A DNA stretch of 64,000 nt from Candidatus Bathyarchaeota archaeon (GTDB lineage Archaea > Thermoproteota > Bathyarchaeia > Bathyarchaeales > Bathycorpusculaceae). Positions 3,301-13,062 of this stretch are shown in pieces; positions within the stretch are counted from its first letter, which is position 1, and every line of letters starts with the position of its first letter. The notes below the pieces were generated by a model, which did not search any database, was not told the origin of the DNA, and saw nothing but the letters and a program-made list of their open reading frames with translations. Both the position numbers and the translations under genes were made by a program. The stretch lies in assembly GCA_963832745.1 (NCBI GenBank), contig CAWHVC010000002.1, positions 256,001 through 320,000 on the forward strand, given 5' to 3'.

Positions 3301-4004
3301 GTGGATGCTCGGAGGATTATGATGGCTAAAATTCGAAAGTTTGGCTTGGTTTTAGTGGGGATTTTACTTGCCAGTGGTTTATTGCTGTCATTTAATGTTC
3401 ATGCCGAGCCTTCAGTTGACCCGCCGCCTTTCCCAACTTTTACCGTTAGTCTGGTGGACTTCTCCTATGATGTACCAGTCTGTAACAAACCCTTATAACG
3501 GCAATATTACGACTCCAGACTCATAATGTTACAGAATATCAGTTAGAGCTCAAAATTAAAAATGTTCATGTTCCCTACAAGGAAGTATACTATAACATAC
3601 AAACCAAAGGTTTCTATGAGGATATATGGACAAGCCACTCACGAAATAGGGCATCTGATTCAGAGTACACTATGGTTCACCTTTCTGCAGAGTATAGTGT
3701 TGGTGATAAAATAGATATTCAAGTGCAGACGGAAATTGTGTACCAATATGAACAAGCTCCAATCTTGCCTAATCATGATTCGACCTTTTTAACTGGCTAC
3801 CAAAAAGGCAGTTGGAGCCCAACTCAAACTTTCACAATGCCAGACACATCCACGCCATCATCGACTCCAACATTTAGCGCCCCAGAATTTACCGCACTTA
3901 TAACAAATCCATTGGCAATCAGCATTATAGTCTTAACAATAGGCTTTATATTTGTAGCATTTGTGTTAAAGAAAAAAACAACCTCTAATTTCCACAAAAG
4001 CTAA
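3301..4004 (+). pseudogene. Frameshifted secreted, C-terminally anchored protein
   Basis: Signal peptide + PTFTVSLVDFSYDVP, continues in other frames (VTNPYNGNITT; HNVTEYQLELKIKN...SDSEYT) into ORF 3672..4004 with a Ser/Thr/Pro linker and TM anchor; two frameshifts near 3480-3525. Confidence 0.65.
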
Positions 4005-4415: not shown

Positions 4416-6011
4416 ATGACATGTTACAGAAGATCACACATTATACAGCAGCGAGCAGGCGCTGGTACAGGTTACCAAATCAAAATTATTGTTCACAGTG
4501 GAAACGGAACCACTCAGAACGGAACCAACGAGCTATGGTGTAATAACCATTGTAAAAACGATTTTAGTGATATTAGATTCACTGCAAGCGATGGCTATAC
4601 ACCGTTACCTTTTTGGTGTGAAAGTCTAACCCAAGCAGACCAAGCTGTTTTTTGGGTTAAAATTCTTGATGATCTCAGTAGCGCGAACAGCACAATTTGG
4701 GTTTATTACACTCTCAATTATGATGCTACATATACCCCTTATCCATCAGCAAACAATGGTAAAGAAACTTTTCTATTTTTTGACGATTTCGCAGGATACC
4801 TAGATCCTTTGAAATGGAACACTTGGAAGGAAGGCGGTACGGGGGGCGGTACCGAGGTTAATCAAAGTGAATTGCGTGTAACCGGTGTCTCAAATTGGCA
4901 AAAAGTCGGTTCTAAAGTCATGTGGGGTTACCCAGTAGCTTTCCGTTATAAAGGTCGATTTAGTGAAGCAGGTTATTGCCAGATAGGTGCAGATGATGGT
5001 ACAGCAAGCAGTACTGGTGATGGATATAATGGGGTGGATCAAGCAGCCTTTAGTTATGGGAATAGCACGAAATCATATCGGTTTTCTAGACAAGGTGGCT
5101 ATACTACGATTTCAAGAACGTCTAATTTAAGCTCAAACACAACACTGGAAATTTGCAGACTCAAGAAATAGATACCGCAGACCCCTAAAAAAATCTACTT
5201 CTATGAAAATAATGTCCTTAAGGCATCGAATCAGAGTAGTGGTGTTCCGCTTAATGATCAAGGTCTCTATTTTGCGGCATATGGGTCAGATGTGTATCTT
5301 GATTGGTGTTTAGTTCGCAAGTTTGTTGACCCTGAGCCTGCTCATGGAGACTGGACAGGCGAAGATGTTGGGACAGATCAACCGGTTACAGGTAATTTGT
5401 TAGTGGCAGGAACAGCAGTAATAAATGGTCCCATCACAACAGGTCACGCAACACTTACTGGTTGTATGCAAAGTAATGAACATTGGGATAGCTTAGGATG
5501 GAACGATTTTTTGGACGCTATGAAATATCACAGGTTTTCTAATACAGTAGGCAAAATTCGTTTCCATGATTTAGCTGGTAGTGGTGATGTAGATCTTCAT
5601 GGTGCCTCGTTGGGTGATCCTATATTGGTTTGTACTCAACATTTCGCTGTAGAAAAAGACTTGTTAGCCACTGGAATGTTAAACAGTATTGAAGGAGAAT
5701 TATGCCTTAATGCAGGCAAATACGCTCCAAATTGGGCATGGGAAATCGTCAGCACTCATACACCTCTTACAACGGGTGAAACTACTACAACAAAGAACCC
5801 TTTCATTTGGCTAGCACAAGGTGGAATCTTTGGAAATTATAACACTTTGGAAATAAGAGTAACTGGAGACGCTAATGGAAACTGGAACTGGGGAAATTTT
5901 GCATGTGGAGACATAACAAGTTACGGAAACCTGCAAGTAAACTCGATAGTATTACCTACAAATCGTGCATCGCCTGCTGATGGTGAAATCTGGTTATACT
6001 CTGGAGCGTAA
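4416..6011 (+). pseudogene. DUF2341-domain structural/adhesin-like protein (~531 aa) interrupted by one in-frame TAG at 5169-5171
   Basis: GAGGTGA RBS at 4402-4408; DFSDIRFT, AVFWVKI, TIWVYY, NNGKETFLFFDDF motifs; ORFs 4416 and 5292 are in the same frame and the gap reads open (IPQTPKKIYFYENNVLKA...DVYLDWCLVRKFVDPEPAHGDW); ends ASPADGEIWLYSGA. Confidence 0.7.
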
Positions 6012-6086
6012 CAAAATGTCAAATGACTTACTTAATGGAGAGTTTTTTTCTTCTCTCTTTTTTTATCAAAACAACTGTGAAATGAG

Positions 6087-7945
6087 GTGTTACTTGGGAG
6101 TTGGTTGACTGGTTGGACTAATAGAAAGTCTCATTTGATTACTGGTGCTACTGGTGCAGGTAACGATTACCAAGTAAAAATTATCGTTAATTATGGTTCT
6201 GGTAGCGATAGTGGTAACAGTGTTTATTGTAGCAGCAATTGTGGTCAGGATTTTGGTGATATACGTTTTACTGGTTCAGATGGAACAACATCACTTCCGT
6301 ATTGGATGGAGAAAAAAACTGATGGAACCAGCGCAGTCTTTTGGGTTAAAGTATTAGCCGATTTAAGTTCTAACCTAAACTATCTATGTCAACTACAATA
6401 AACCCAGCGAAACAACCACAAGTAACGGTACTGACACTTTTGACGTTTTTCGCAATTTAGTCGACAACTTCTATGCTGCTTTGGGAACAGTTAACCTTAC
6501 CATTTACAATAATGGCCAAGATCCTGGAGACTACTTTATCGCTTCACAAACTGTAAATTCAGTGAACATTAGCCCCTGTATCTACTTCAGAGTTTATGGT
6601 GGCAAAAAATATGCCGTATCTTTGTCTAACCTGTACTTTGAGGGTTTACTTGGTGGTGGAAACTATGGTATCTGCGGAATAGACCTACGCAACCGAACCT
6701 GAGCTGCTCCAACAGGCTGGAAAACATCAATGGCCTACACTGCAAATACAACGCTAAACAAAAAACACGTTGTTGTACTCGATTACTTAAAGGCAGGCAC
6801 TGGCAGTGGATCTATCGTGTTCTATTCAAGCTGGTCTAATCCTGATGATATACCTGAAGGTACATCTGCTTTAAGCCAAAGCCTTTCTTCCACGTCAAGG
6901 GCTGTCACCGAATACTTATACAATGGAAGCGTTTCGCACATTAGAATATCTGGTGAACCAAATTCCCAAGTTACCGCTTACTCTGCAGTATACGCGGTAG
7001 GTAAATATGTTAACCCTGAACCATCACATTCAACCTGGGGCAATGAAGAGTCTTCAGGTGGCGGAACAATACCTGATCAATCCAGTTTCCTACGTTTCAA
7101 GCGGGCTGACGGAGTTTACGCGCTTTGTGTTGTACCTAACGGTCAAGGTGCGGCCAGCATGGGTGGAATACCCAAAGTACGAAAAGACGGTGTCACATAT
7201 GACATCTATCTTGTTGAAACAAACGACGCTTTTGCAAGCCCTGTTAGAGTTAAAACCAGTGCTGGAACAAAAGCCGTACGATACTACACGAGCTCACAGT
7301 GATTCAGTGCACTCGGACGTAGCTCACAGCGATAACAGTTCTCACAGTGATGTCCCATTTTCAAATGTTGTGCATTCTGACTCTTCAACTCACAGCGATG
7401 TTGCTCATTCCGATGTTTCCGCTTTTTCCAACTGGGTAGAGCACTACGATCACAGTGACAGCCCACATAGCGATATTACTCATTCAGATGCCAGTAGCGC
7501 CCATAGCGATACGGCATTTAGTAACGTTGCTCACTCTGATACTCAACCCCAGTACTATTACGATGCCGCCCATTACTGGGATGGTTATTACCATTTGGAC
7601 GCGACTGGCGGTACCCCGATTGAACACTACGATTACAGCGACACTCCACATTCTGACGTTGTACATAGTGATGCTTCATCTCACAGTGATACGGCATTTA
7701 GTAACGTTGCTCATTCCGACACTCAACCTCAAGGATACTATGACCAATACAGTTGGTGGGACCAATATGACCACACAAATCATCAAAATGTTCCCTTTAG
7801 TAACACAGCACATTCAGATAGCACTCCTCACAGTGATGTTACTCATTCAGACGTACCCCACAGCGACACCGCGACAACACATAGCGATACCCCACATTCA
7901 GACTCTGTACATTCAGATACAGCAGAAGGCATAATCGCCTTCTGA
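6087..7945 (+). pseudogene. Reconstructed ~620-aa protein: DUF2341 domain + linker domain + C-terminal HSD/aromatic-x-Asx repeat tail
   Basis: Extra A near 6378 (removing it restores TIYVNYNKPSETTTSNGTDTFDVF), in-frame TGA at 6700-6702 (NRT*AAPTGW), and a +1 shift near 7290 joining KAVRYYT to AHSDSVHSD; joins track ORFs 6087, 6481, 6730 and the 3' part of 7007. Confidence 0.7.
7292..7920 (+). repeat. Coding low-complexity repeat: 23 HSD, 5 FSN and other aromatic-x-D/N triplets, with an internal duplication of ~180-nt period
   Basis: Counted from the translation; GATACGGCATTTAGTAACGTTGCTCA occurs at ~7508 and ~7688. Confidence 0.9.
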
Positions 7946-7963
7946 CCTTTCGGGGTGAATATT

Positions 7964-9246
7964 ATGGCTATAATTGTAGTTCCAAATTTAAGTTGCAATA
8001 TCGGCTGCAAATACTGTTTTGCCCACGGCTACAGTTGGGTTGAAAACTCAAAAAAGAGTTACAACCTTAACGCTATGCTGGAATCAATGGAAAAGATGCA
8101 CAAACAAACCGGCGGTGACCTATTTTGTATGCATGGCGGCGAATGCACGTTGATAGATCGAAGTGACTTTGAAACCATCCTTAAAAAAATGTATCAGTTA
8201 CAGGGCAAATCATCTATTCAAACTAACGCTTACGAAATTGACAATGACTTAATTCGGCTATTCAAAAAATACAAAACTTCTGTTGGGGTAAGCATTGACG
8301 GAGACGGCGAGTTAAACTCCTTAAGAGGGTTCCCTTGTAACAAAGAAATGTCCAGCAAATATACCAATGTTGTTCTCAAGAACATGTTTGAAATGCAAAA
8401 ACAAGGCATCAATGTTGGCGTAATCACTTTGTTGCATAAAATTAACGCTGGCACTGACGAGGCACTTGACAAACTAGTTGACTTCATTTTGATGTTAAGA
8501 GCCAATAACATCAGAGGCGGCAGACTAAATTTAATGTGGACAAATTATCCAGAAGTAAAACAATACGAATTAACTCCACAAGAAGCTTCAAATGCATGGC
8601 TATACCTCTATGGCAACCTTAAACATTACCTGATTTAGAGTGGCAACCCTTCAGAGAATTCGCCGATAACCTTCTTGGTTATGGTCATTTTAGCTGTTCC
8701 TTTGGTAAATGTGATTACTTCTGCACAATGGGTGCTAAAGTCATACTGCCAGATGGTTCACTTGGAAATTGTGACCGCACTCATCAGGAAGGAGTTACAT
8801 ACACTAGAGCAACTGAGTCTCCTACATACGAACGATATGAAGTGTTAAAAGAAACAGATTGCAGTAATTGCAGATTCTGGAACATATGCTATGGCGGTTG
8901 CCCTTCTGAAGGTGACAACAGCGACTGGCGAAACAAAACACGATGGTGTAAACCAACATACGACCTCTACAGCGTTATTGAAGCCGATATACGCGCCCTT
9001 TTTCCTAACATAAACCTTGTAACCGATTATCATGGCAAAGAAGACTACTTTGATATGGTAAAAAAAGGCGTATACATCAAAGCATTCAGTAAAATGACCT
9101 GGGAAACAGCATGCAACCCTTCTTCATGGAAACACACTCAAGAAAAGCAGCCTTGGGGTACAAATCAATCCCGTCAACCTGTTTGCAATCCTCATGGCGA
9201 TTCTCCTCATGGTGACTTTACAAACAATGGTGGTGAAACCAATTGA
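7964..9246 (+). pseudogene. Radical SAM/SPASM maturase (~427 aa; anSME/triceptide-maturase-like) split by a 1-nt deletion at ~8630
   Basis: GGGGTGA RBS before ATG 7964; CNIGCKYC, HGGE, QTNA, SIDG; restoring one C gives YPDLEWQPFREFADNLLGYGHFSCSFGKCDYFCTM, joining ORF 8728 with SPASM cysteines GNC...CSNCRFWNICYGGCP...WC. Confidence 0.85.
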
Positions 9247-10040
9247 CAGACCTTAACCCGTTTTTTAAAATATCTTGGAACAACGCCAATATCAGAAATA
9301 CATACGACAAAATAATTGCTTCAGCCAACGAATTAAGCTACAGAGCAGAATATGAAATGGTAAAGCTTGGGCTGCGACAAGCAAACGTGTACCACATGAC
9401 TCCGAATAGCTTTGACAAACAAATCGAAACCATAACAAACGATGGATTGGTTTTCTTGCCAATTCTTAGAAGCAAGGCATACAGCGGATTTAGCCACAAA
9501 CATTTTCCAGTTGACAAGTTAGACAGCGATACATTCGTATTTGGAGTAGTTGCCCAAAGCATTGAGATAGCCCAAAAATTCAAAGCTGCCTCCCTTAAGG
9601 GTGACCATATTACTCAAGGTGAACTGCTTGGCTACCCCAAATGCTGTTGTGAAGCATTCAGCAAAAACTGGTCTAGCAATAAACTTGATCCATGTTATGA
9701 ATCGGCAGTCAACACACCTGAAGCTACTTTGGATTACACTAAAGAAAAAGTACACGTTAATGGCGATGCATGCCTTAATACTATGCTTAGGTACTTTGGG
9801 GTGAGAATAGTTCCTTTCTTCCCGTGTAGTTACCAATGCAGCGAAGCTTTGGATGTCAGCAAGAACTGGTTTGAAGTAATGAAATCCTTAAACAAAGATG
9901 TTACTTTAAAAGTCAAGGAACTGCTTGAACAACCACTAACATGGGTATTTAACAAAGGCATAATCTACATAACAACTCCCATTATGCGAGCTGTTGTGAA
10001 CGGATATGAATGTGAAAGGAAGAGTGTACTATGGCAATGA
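9243..10040 (+). CDS. DUF483-like Cys-motif protein
   Basis: GELLGYPKCCCEAF and VPFFPCSYQC motifs; start overlaps the radical SAM stop (TTGA); GGTGA RBS. Confidence 0.6.
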   Translation: MTDLNPFFKISWNNANIRNTYDKIIASANELSYRAEYEMVKLGLRQANVYHMTPNSFDKQIETITNDGLVFLPILRSKAYSGFSHKHFPVDKLDSDTFVFGVVAQSIEIAQKFKAASLKGDHITQGELLGYPKCCCEAFSKNWSSNKLDPCYESAVNTPEATLDYTKEKVHVNGDACLNTMLRYFGVRIVPFFPCSYQCSEALDVSKNWFEVMKSLNKDVTLKVKELLEQPLTWVFNKGIIYITTPIMRAVVNGYECERKSVLWQ

Positions 10041-10744
10041 CTGAAGAAAAGCAAAAGTATGCAATTGATTTCGTCAAAAAGACTCTTCCAGCTGATGCTG
10101 AAATACTCTTCTTAAGCTTGACTGGCAGTAGAGCATTTGGATGGGCCGATGGCGCTCAAGACTATGATGTTCATGGTGTCTTTCTATGTGATAACTATTG
10201 GGATTGGGTTCATTATGGAAAAAATATGTTTGATATTAATCTCTATGAGCTTCACCATATACAATCCGATATAGTTTGTTAGCATTTTGAGGAATTCATG
10301 AACTTTTCTAATCCATTCTATGTAAACCCCAAATTTGATTATGACGGATTGATGTCTTTTTGCACAAATGATAGTGTCAGACAAAAAGATGCTGATATAG
10401 AATCGCAGATAAACCGGTTTAAGTACGACGGATCACCAAGGACTGCTTTGCATGCCTACAGAATACTTATGGTGCCTTTGTATTTCATTGAAAATCGAAA
10501 GTTTAAGCTGAACATTTTTGAAATCAACGGACAGGACGCATTTGGTTTTTCTGAATTGAATAACTTAAAAGCTGCATATAATCTTGGGCATTCTAGTTAT
10601 AATAGAAAAAAAGTGCTTTCTGATTTAGAGTATTTGCACAATCTCTGCAAAGAAAAAATTGCTAAGTTACCTGCTGAAAAACCGGATATGGAGAAGGCTA
10701 AGATTTGGCTTAAAAATGTTAAGGGGGGTTTATTGCAAAAATGA
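10037..10744 (+). pseudogene. Pol-beta superfamily nucleotidyltransferase (YcgL/RlaP-like) with in-frame TAG at 10280-10282
   Basis: LTGSRAFG...DYDVHGVF (GS...DxD) motif; ORFs 10031 and 10298 share a frame (DIVC*HFEEFMNF); ATGA overlap with the upstream gene. Confidence 0.7.
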
Positions 10745-10971
10745 GTAACGAACTAAACCCTTATCAGGATATGTCACCAATGAACGGTAAATTAAATGTT
10801 GAAATGCAACGGCAAATCGCTACTTTGAACGCTCGGATTAACAATGCTACGTTAGCTTATGATGATTTGCTTAAAGAGATTAATTGCGTCTTTAAGATGA
10901 TGCTGAATACAATCGAAGTCCTGCAAAGGGAAGCTACTGAAATTAAGGCCAAGGCTCAGGATAAAGCCTGA
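10741..10971 (+). CDS. Small coiled-coil protein, last gene of the island operon
   Basis: ATGA overlap, G-rich RBS, heptad-like helix. Confidence 0.6.
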   Translation: MSNELNPYQDMSPMNGKLNVEMQRQIATLNARINNATLAYDDLLKEINCVFKMMLNTIEVLQREATEIKAKAQDKA

Positions 10972-11555: not shown

Positions 11556-13062
11556 TTAAAATAACTTATGCATTGTTTTCGCTGTTTTTGTTTTTTTTCG
11601 TCGAAAGACCATAATTATTAATATGATAATTATGCTTGCAGCAACTACCGCGGCTATCCAAAGGGGCGGTTGATATGACAATTCTTTTGCTTCGTTTTGG
11701 ATTAAGCCCTGATTTGTTACGGTTATGGTGCCGCCGGATGTTTGGTCAAAAACAGTTGTTTCGCCCCCCAAGTTCATGAGGGTTTGCGCATCGACGTTTT
11801 CTATGAAAGAAGTTGTAAATGAAATGTTTGCCATATTGTTAAACACGATTTTCGCTGCTTCGCTACTTGTTTTTATCATCCATTCGTCAGGCGTAGATTG
11901 ATTTGCTGTTTAGTATGTTCATGTTTGCGTTACTTGTGAATTGAGTATTGGTGATGTCTAAATTACCGTTGTTTGCCATGTTGTGTATGTTGCTGACGTT
12001 GCAGTTTGTGAATGAGAGGTTGCCGGCGGTGTTGAAGCTGTTTATGTCTAACAGTTTGGTGCTGATGAATGTAGCTGTGCCTGCATTATTGTAGTTGTTC
12101 AGGTTTGTGATTGTACAGTTAGTCATTGTCTCGGCACCGTTAGTGTTGTAATTTCCGATGCCGCTGAAATTGCAATCATCCATTGTGTTTTCTATTCCGT
12201 AATCGCTGTAGATTATGTTGGCTGATGTACTTTCTATTATGCTGTTTTTCCAAGTTGCTTGCCCTGTTAAGATGCTGATGCTTGCGGTTTTTCCGTGTGA
12301 TGCTCCTGAGGCCGAAAAACCGCCTGAATCCACCGTTAATGTGCCGTATTGGCTGTTTAAGTTTATTGTTCCGCCATAATTGGCGTCCATTATGCAATGG
12401 GTAAGTTGGAGGTTGCCTTTGTTTGCAATGTTTTGTATTCCCCTGGCTCCGTTCGCGGTGAAGCCGGTGTTTGTTAGGGTTGCATCTTTGTTGTTTGTAA
12501 AGAATGTGCCGTCAAATTGGTCTTTAAGCTGCCAATTGTCCGCGTTTAGGGTGCCGTCATTGGTGATGTAGGCGACTCCCCCGTAAACGTTGATTCCCGC
12601 ATTTTTTACGATGAGGGTCTCGGTGTTGATTATGTGTAGTGTTGAGTTGCCTGATAGGTTGATGTTTTCGTCTTGAATAGTTAAGGTTCCTTTGTTTAGT
12701 ATGGTTAAGTTGGCTTGGGTGCATTGGATTTCTGCTTTTATGGTTAATTCGCCGTTGTTTATGATTTCTAACAGGGTTTTTTGGTTGTTTGTTCCTTGGA
12801 CGTTAATGTTGTGTTCAAGATTGCTTTTTTCGTTTGCCTCAATGGTTACTGTTGTGTTAGAAGTGATTGAATCGTTCATGTCTGATAAAATTTCGTTAGC
12901 TTGAGTAGTTTCAACAATAGAAATAGTTAAAATTATTATGATTAATGCACAAATTACCCTGTTTTTGTTCAATTTGAAATGCCTTCTCCCTTGAGGTTTT
13001 ATTATGTTTTGAGTGTTTATTTGTTTTTTGGGCTGGTTAATCACCGGTTGCTTGGGAAACAT
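11556..13062 (-). pseudogene. Asn/Thr/Gly-rich beta-helix-like surface protein with N-terminal hydrophobic segment and C-terminal TM anchor; one frameshift near 11890
   Basis: NxGxL-type repeats; removing one base reads IYADEWMIKT, parallel to internal NADNWQLK, and fuses ORFs 11887..13062 and 11556..11879. Confidence 0.65.

Follow-up and report, generated by a model that had tools for sequence, protein, structure and literature searches.

We describe here a cassette of six genes on the + strand at positions 4416-10971 of a 64,000-nucleotide (nt) stretch of DNA from a Candidatus Bathyarchaeota archaeon. The whole of this stretch is termed the window in what follows, all coordinates refer to it, and related loci carry labels (L017 and so on). 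At the centre of the cassette lies a gene for a radical S-adenosylmethionine (rSAM) enzyme with a SPASM domain, preceded by the gene for a large protein that ends in an array of aromatic-x-Asp/Asn triplets and followed by that for a cysteine-rich protein related to DUF483. Family matches and positions agree with the gene content and coordinates given in an initial annotation of this DNA. The genes and their parts are the following, where E denotes an expectation value and ORF an open reading frame.

4416..6011, + strand: DUF2341 protein 1, 531 amino acids (aa) with read-through; Pfam DUF2341, E 5.5e-16
6087..7945, + strand: DUF2341 protein 2, ~619 aa; Pfam DUF2341, E 9.4e-10 at 6087-6398
7292..7945, + strand: repeat tail of DUF2341 protein 2, 217 aa with 38 aromatic-x-Asp/Asn triplets; proposed substrate array
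7955..9246, + strand: radical SAM/SPASM enzyme; Radical_SAM, E 4.7e-14 at 7955-8635; SPASM half at 8623-9243
9160..9246, + strand: the enzyme's own C-terminal HGD/HGD/FTN motifs
9243..10040, + strand: DUF483-like Cys-rich partner, 265 aa, intact; DUF483, 30.4 bits (cut-off 25)
10031..10744, + strand: RlaP-like nucleotidyltransferase; RlaP, 24 bits (cut-off 23)
10741..10971, + strand: small ORF, 76 aa, overlapping the stop of the nucleotidyltransferase gene

The two DUF2341 proteins are paralogues. The first comprises the DUF2341 domain, a LamG-like part ending in a conserved ...VRKFVDPEP.HG.W motif and a C-terminal domain; in the second, the DUF2341 domain and a LamG-like part are followed by a small beta domain and then by the repeat tail, which ends 9 nt ahead of the radical SAM/SPASM gene. 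The SPASM half of the enzyme (8623-9243) scores 27.6 bits against TIGR04085 (cut-off 27) and carries a CxxCx5Cx3C motif. The last four genes overlap from stop to start at 9246/9243, 10040/10031 and 10744/10741, as had been described. Neither a protease nor an exporter is found among the genes of the locus.

Between 7292 and 7942 the tail contains 23 HSD, five FSN, two HYD and two YYD triplets, together with one each of YWD, HLD, YSD, WWD, HTN and HQN; these are exactly the 38 originally listed. When the residues of the tail are shuffled 5000 times the mean number of triplets is 9.5 (standard deviation 2.5) and the maximum 18, well below the number observed. The HSD triplets are encoded by 13 different 9-mers, and Tandem Repeats Finder detects just one 22-nt array in the tail. 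With such varied codons and almost no tandem array in the DNA, the repeat is evidently kept at the level of the protein; an origin by slippage of the DNA is rejected on the same grounds. In the related locus L017 a single open frame encodes the tail together with the small domain, the last globular one, and the tail therefore belongs to the DUF2341 protein. The small domain that stands ahead of the tail recurs in 5 loci.

How widespread is this arrangement of genes? Using an alignment of close relatives (A2) we fetched 160 loci, of which 75 come from genomes, 5 from viral contigs and 80 from metagenomes. An rSAM homologue adjoins the DUF483-like gene in 63 of these, of which 56 are unique. A repeat ORF on the same strand and within 2.5 kb was counted as dense when 40 aa of it held 5 triplets or more, or when it had 7 or more H-x-D/N motifs. 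Such an ORF accompanies the pair at 41 of the 56 unique loci, and of the 15 loci that have none, 10 break off at the end of a contig on the side concerned; among the loci with enough flanking DNA the fraction is 41/46. The repeat ORF lies upstream of the pair in 38 of the 41 cases; over all 41 the median gap is 21 nt, and in 33 of the 41 it is no larger than 100 nt. As a control we took 82 unique loci with a distant DUF483 relative and no rSAM gene, mostly from DPANN-type archaea, where a dense ORF is found in just 2. These counts bear out the expectation of the initial annotation that homologues of the enzyme adjoin both aromatic-x-Asx repeat ORFs and DUF483-like genes. The repeat protein, the rSAM enzyme and the DUF483-like protein form a real conserved module. 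Its named hosts include four Bathyarchaeota metagenome-assembled genomes (MAGs), one Firmicutes-binned MAG, one from Poribacteria and one from Granulicella.

In 3 of the 160 loci the module has a DUF2341 relative nearby. Relatives of the nucleotidyltransferase occur in 9, all within an archaeal-type sub-group, and from this distribution the RlaP-like protein appears to be an accessory of that sub-group; it is indeed encoded here, and its proposed standing as a gene of the cassette is limited to those 9 loci. The small ORF at 10741-10971, described at first as a coiled-coil protein of the operon, has no family match and no relative in the 160 loci. It is not conserved, and its membership of the cassette is doubtful.

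The grammar of the triplets was derived from 47 unique arrays including this one, with a total of 1752 motifs. Position 1 is H in 61%, Y in 14%, F in 14% and W in 11%; position 2 is variable, with S in 36%; and position 3 is D in 74% and N in 26%. Seen from the aromatic residue, an Asp or Asn stands at +2 after 90% of His, 64% of Trp, 63% of Phe and 40% of Tyr, where D and N together make up 22% of the residues in the spans. The pattern is directional, being counted 1766 times forward and 578 times in reverse (~3 times rarer), with peaks at 3 and at 5 in the distance from one motif start to the next. The free middle residue, and the fact that aromatic residues that do not bind metal follow the same rule, fit the aromatic-X-X rule of the triceptide synthases, which the grammar thus resembles. 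The variability of position 2 led us to reject the serine of HSD as a target in the manner of the sulfatase maturases. The array ORFs, read stop to stop and in some cases cut by contig ends, range from 49 to 1292 aa, most being longer than 200 aa, and contain 7-148 motifs. The putative substrate is then a protein, of ~619 aa here, and not a short peptide, as had been proposed. Acidobacteria-type arrays (L023, L151, L162, L173 and L175) have a different appearance, with one PHSD in each unit of 11-14 aa and basic pairs between, and look more like a multi-core precursor than a fibre.

An alignment of 35 relatives of the enzyme shows no variation at the cysteines C11, C15 and C18 (CxxxCxxC), in the GGE motif or at the SPASM cysteines. 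Since the radical SAM motif begins at residue 11, the enzyme lacks an N-terminal recognition domain. The NCBIfam models that score highest with the two halves of the window enzyme and with four full-length relatives are DynA, the anaerobic sulfatase maturase, AmcB, YhhB and TIGR04083. The families of cyclophane synthases (XyeB, GrrM/OscB, FxsB, YhhB and AmcB) give 48-76 bits against cut-offs of 310-450, none of which is reached. Judged by these scores the enzyme is a neighbour of the sulfatase maturases and the crosslinking enzymes, and a member of none of the named families. The kinship to triceptide maturases that had been suggested holds insofar as the nearest families include cyclophane formers; as an assignment to a family it fails, in that no cut-off is reached and the sulfatase maturase is about equally near. 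A further feature is that 41 of 51 unique enzymes themselves carry H-x-D/N in their last 45 aa, mostly as HGD and in up to ten copies. The enzymes of L105, L121, L129-L132, L135 and L136 end in 8-10 HGD repeats, resembling a fused substrate-like array, and L105 has no separate array ORF.

The DUF483-like partner is confidently predicted to fold (mean pLDDT 95, pTM 0.90), and no PDB fold matches the model at E<=0.001 (best E 0.018, TM no higher than 0.30). A search of the PDB with the sequence profile gives only a chance-level match, and by sequence no like complex has been solved. Relatives number 89 at E<=0.001 in a word-indexed search, and a profile search of representative clusters returns 571 at E<=1e-30, 1393 at E<=1e-10 and 2656 at E<=0.001. 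When enzyme and partner of locus L019 are modelled together the complex scores 0.82, and the best of three controls 0.00. Of 80 solved complexes 58 score this high, as do 2 of 110 mismatched pairs; the calibration is a rough one, since our own alignments were used. Between runs 69% or more of the contacts agree, and the pLDDT of the partner is 84 or higher. In the model the N-terminal strand and the C-terminal sheet of the partner lie on the SPASM domain, where they contact the invariant D316 and R318. Among ten long DUF483-like relatives, four are rSAM-DUF483 fusions (one with an additional methyltransferase), two are glycosyltransferase-DUF483 fusions, one is a PqqD-DUF483-methyltransferase fusion and three contain inteins. 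The natural fusions of rSAM and DUF483 lend the predicted complex independent support. From the model and the fusions, the partner would be a subunit of the maturase and possibly the part that recognizes the substrate. In P0096, P0103 and P0108 (~620-660 aa) the LAGLIDADG/intein insertions lie inside the DUF483-like domain, and in P0124, P0173, P0230 and P0212 that domain is fused to family 2 glycosyltransferases (GT2), to PqqD and methyltransferase or to rSAM and methyltransferase. A GT2-like gene also follows the pair in L021; L093 and L095 have relatives of this gene, as judged by eye.

The module is frequently found in viruses. In L092 and L094, which are IMG/VR contigs, it follows a tape-measure gene (PHROG E 1.7e-28 and 6.7e-10, respectively), and in L092 there is a DUF2341 protein nearby (E 6.5e-18). 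Atlas clusters nearest to the DUF483-like partner are 40-74% viral. In a phage collection the partner of the window matches 3 of 50,697 records, all of them Thermus phages, with E 4e-34 against Cumys_11 (98% of length) and E 3e-33 against the phiMa protein, at a coverage of 97-98% (tblastn). The order in Cumys is baseplate and tail-collar-fibre genes, gp13, a gene annotated 'rSAM protein' and another annotated 'DUF483-domain protein'; gp13 has 343 aa, and its C-terminal two thirds are an H-x-D ladder. Thus the arrays of the phages lie in a tail context.

The initial annotation had presented the cassette as a candidate new system, and in this respect it was anticipated. The gene trio has been published by Kolesnik et al. 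(Viruses 2024) as the 'rSAM module' of the Thermus phages Cumys and phiMa, with no function given (PMC11437467), and fusions of DUF483 with rSAM and methyltransferase domains are noted in the same paper. The three genes and their order (upstream gene, rSAM, DUF483) are those of the window; the differences are the archaeal host, the DUF2341 carrier, the added nucleotidyltransferase and the broken state of the present copy. The word 'histidine' does not occur in the main text of PMC11437467. Within the literature searched we found no reading of the module as a system of protein maturation, and searches for rSAM with tail fibre, and for HxD or HSD with radical SAM, judged by title and abstract, gave no description of the link between repeat and enzyme. 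What appears to be new here is the Bathyarchaeota-type archaeal host, the DUF2341 carrier protein and, from modelling, the predicted complex of rSAM and DUF483-like proteins.

The distribution of the cassette is very patchy. None of 400 other genomes of the class contains the DUF483-like partner at E<=1e-20, and the enzyme is found in 1 of 24 genomes of the same genus (G011). This fits acquisition by a horizontal, probably viral, route. We found no att-like flanking repeats around the cassette. Because there is no viral hallmark in the window or the archaeal relatives, and the viral context is seen only in other relatives, we infer rather than observe a proviral origin for this copy.

The present copy is extensively damaged. 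Reading from stop to stop and comparing with the relatives we find six disruptions in 6.3 kb, three of them frameshifts and three in-frame stops, so that 4 of the 6 genes are hit and the DUF483-like gene and the small ORF alone have escaped:

5169-5171: in-frame TAG in DUF2341 protein 1
near 6378: 1-nt insertion in DUF2341 protein 2
6700-6702: in-frame TGA in DUF2341 protein 2
near 7285-7299: 1-nt insertion in DUF2341 protein 2
near 8630: 1-nt deletion in the enzyme, between Tyr and Asp codons (frame 2 to frame 1)
10280-10282: in-frame TAG in the nucleotidyltransferase

That the enzyme is broken had been recognized before; the damage is wider than was then claimed, extending over four genes. 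Relatives of DUF2341 protein 1 cross the region of the TAG without stops, and the enzymes of the relatives are contiguous at the 8630 site, those of L017, L019 and L020 being intact. The split enzyme of the window has retained every cluster cysteine. At the column of the TAG in the nucleotidyltransferase 6 of 9 relatives have Gln and 3 of 9 Gly. Across the remaining 50 kb of the window, ORFs that are 100 aa or longer take up 83% of the DNA (mean length 345 aa); since this part is unfragmented, and signs of recoding are lacking, the lesions are local to the cassette. With four of its six genes disrupted, this copy is probably a decaying remnant that no longer works. The enzyme of the same-genus relative G011 (locus L016) is also frameshifted, at another site (9965-10035 in the numbering of L016). 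Its neighbour there is a protein of 565 aa with a short HSN/HSD/HSD/YYT patch.

Several features surround the cassette in the window. Upstream, in a gene-poor stretch of low GC content, the ORFs at 605-1291 (228 aa) and 2814-2996 (60 aa) each match the zf_Tbcl_2 treble-clef zinc finger (E 1.6e-15 and 1.7e-15). The ORF at 3301-3498 has a start resembling a signal peptide and that at 3672-4004 ends in a membrane anchor; they lie on the same strand with 170 nt between, and may be two fragments of another broken gene for a surface protein. Downstream on the - strand (11556-13062) there is a repeat protein of 391 aa, rich in Asn and Thr, that has a membrane segment at its N-terminus and no family match; after it comes an ORF of 107 aa ending in an anchor.

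The module shares features with a number of known rSAM systems. Triceptide maturases such as XyeB, GrrM/OscB and FxsB are SPASM rSAM enzymes that join an aromatic residue to residue 3 of WxN or FxN motifs. Like the enzyme described here, the triceptide synthases (HaaB, YhhB, HtkB, XyeB/XncB, GrrM/OscB, FxsB and ChlB) are rSAM/SPASM proteins without a recognition domain, and their substrates contain several aromatic-X-X motifs, His-first motifs included (PMC11499958). HaaB, YhhB and HtkB form rings between His C2 and C-beta on HAA, HNR and HTK motifs, and HxD is absent from the triceptide motifs named in the text consulted (PMC11499958). The AmcB and YhhB models score 48-76 bits against cut-offs of 425-445. 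In contrast to the short peptides of the triceptide systems the putative substrates here are proteins with 7-148 motifs, and the DUF483-like partner appears to be obligatory. Of the NCBIfam models, DynA scores highest with the N-terminal half of the window enzyme and with two of the four full-length relatives (62-84 bits, cut-off 450). DynA acts on a peptide, and the dynobactin core, the decapeptide WNSNVHSYRF, holds both W-x-N and H-S-x triplets, within which dynobactin is crosslinked. DynA is not known to need a DUF483 partner.

Resemblance to the anaerobic sulfatase-maturating enzyme extends over the whole rSAM and SPASM architecture, which aligns end to end with the full-length relatives (57-86 bits against a cut-off of 349); the conserved neighbours of our enzymes are repeat proteins, and no search aimed at sulfatases was made. 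The His-Xaa-Ser system (HxsB/HxsC) is alike in that an rSAM gene lies beside that of a protein with His-containing triplet repeats, and differs in that HxsB gives 30-36 bits (cut-off 370), the repeat proteins have no NCBIfam match and the register here is H-x-D/N. In the archaeon Methanococcus voltae the SPASM rSAM enzyme CrpC introduces crosslinks typical of RiPPs, peptides that are made on the ribosome and modified after translation, into CrpA, a protein-sized substrate encoded next to it (PMC13692751). That system is different in its thioether (ranthionine) links, its Cys-rich protein and its predicted RiPP recognition element, and the families are unrelated (PMC13692751).

We consider it reasonably probable that the locus is a damaged archaeal copy of a mostly virus-borne trio, in which a complex of the rSAM and DUF483-like proteins modifies arrays of triplets on a structural protein, likely by crosslinking. 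According to this proposal the rSAM/SPASM enzyme, having no recognition domain of its own, would act in complex with its DUF483-like Cys-rich partner, and the complex would modify aromatic-x-Asp/Asn arrays post-translationally on a large structural protein. The carrier of the array would be a tail or fibre protein in the phages and a DUF2341/LamG-type surface protein here. By analogy with the triceptide and dynobactin-type enzymes, the likeliest chemistry would be an internal crosslink in each triplet that ties the aromatic ring to residue 3, and the tail would thereby become a ladder made of small rings. The copy in the window would be a remnant, now decaying, of a cassette that was acquired horizontally and is probably proviral.

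A number of observations weigh against this proposal. The ring chemistry is suggested by resemblance only, and by its scores the enzyme seems as close to the anaerobic sulfatase maturase as to the cyclophane formers; it reaches 55-86 bits where the curated families have cut-offs of 300-450, and its sole sequence match in the PDB is the sulfatase maturase 4k36 (E 2.3e-7). The partner matches no PDB fold and its role is a guess. Tyrosine follows the rule of the grammar in just 40% of cases, and 5 of the 46 evaluable loci have no array (L020, L101, L105, L120 and L134). There is no PHROG match or viral hallmark in the window or its archaeal relatives (0 of 10 proteins), and the six breaks are known from the assembly sequence alone. 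The only paper on the module suggests modification of DNA (PMC11437467). Lastly, metal binding would be an equally good fit to a ladder of His and Asp combined with the HGD tails that 41 of 51 enzymes carry.

This last point leads to a different reading, in which the ladder is the metal-binding core of a fibre with ions held along a trimeric needle by the His and Asp of its three chains, and the rSAM enzyme either performs chemistry that forms no rings or has an HGD tail that docks on the ladder through a shared metal. The tip of the long tail fibre of phage T4, where iron is coordinated by His-x-His motifs, is a precedent. Such a core would accord with the composition of the arrays (D 15%, S 12% and H 10%), with the Asp or Asn at +2 of 90% of His, with their tail and fibre context and with the H-x-D/N ends of the enzymes, some of which have 8-10 copies of HGD. 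Yet Phe and Trp do not bind metal and keep to the same rule (63 and 64%, respectively), Asn replaces Asp in 26% of motifs, and the near-obligatory rSAM gene alongside (41/46) is left unexplained, so that we regard a metal-binding core as unlikely. It is also conceivable that the repeat proteins are true RiPP precursors, with multiple cores that are cut to give small modified peptides. The Acidobacteria-type units of 11-14 aa, with one PHSD and flanking basic pairs such as RR, have the look of such cores, and one relative of the partner is fused to the recognition domain PqqD. However, the array forms the C-terminal end of a folded protein of several domains both in the window and in L017, in phages the arrays are carried by tail-module proteins of up to ~1290 aa, and the genes of the window locus include no protease or exporter; multi-core precursors are accordingly improbable. 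Least probable is an action on nucleic acid instead of protein, as was suggested for the Thermus phages, and we give it only a very small chance. Cyanobacterial homologues do lie near genes for deazapurine modification of DNA (PMC11437467), and a nucleotidyltransferase is present here. Against this, the nearest curated families of the enzyme all act on peptides or proteins, the conserved neighbour is a repeat protein and the module sits within tail modules.

The view of this copy as a remnant also has an alternative, that the locus works by readthrough or recoding of TAG and TGA together with programmed frameshifts, or that all six breaks are errors of assembly. Conserved sequence resumes in the same frame past both TAGs, the enzyme of G011 is frameshifted too, at another site, and the alignment of the nucleotidyltransferase TAG with Gln in 6 of 9 relatives is what recoding of TAG to Gln would give. 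Recoding of this kind occurs in some phages. For a CAG codon, though, a single transition suffices to give TAG. The host has neither PylS nor PylD above cut-off, and a reading of TAG as pyrrolysine was rejected for that reason; a CTA anticodon is found in 0 of the 40 host tRNAs detected, and TAG terminates 231 of 1497 long frames genome-wide. Moreover three kinds of lesion occur together, the relatives need no recoding and the rest of the window is not fragmented. There is thus little to recommend a functional locus, and we think it improbable. A sequence common to two of the frameshift sites was considered as a slippery signal and rejected, since the shift in the enzyme maps ~10 nt further on. 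The TAGs at 5169-5171 and 10280-10282 may each be a mutation of CAG to TAG or, less likely, reflect a viral code in which TAG is Gln, the 10280 TAG lying at a Gln column.

If the rSAM and DUF483-like proteins do modify the arrays, a structural protein of the virion type would be crosslinked at dozens of sites by a radical enzyme, and we found no instance of this in the literature searched. The DUF483-like partner, which has a confidently predicted fold and no solved relative, would gain a role, and the modification would bear on the resistance of fibres to proteases or on the binding of hosts. The copy in the window is probably dead, which limits its own value; the cultured Thermus phages carry the cassette, and this makes the question directly testable. 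The archaeal copies indicate that the cassette crosses domains. More tentatively, bacterial and archaeal viruses, along with certain cells that have taken up the cassette, may use a two-subunit rSAM maturase to give a particle protein or a surface protein a poly-crosslinked tip; in this maturase the DUF483-like protein would be a new module for recognition or a second catalytic module. Should such a maturase and its ladder of rings prove real, RiPP chemistry would be extended to whole structural proteins, in both prokaryotic domains.

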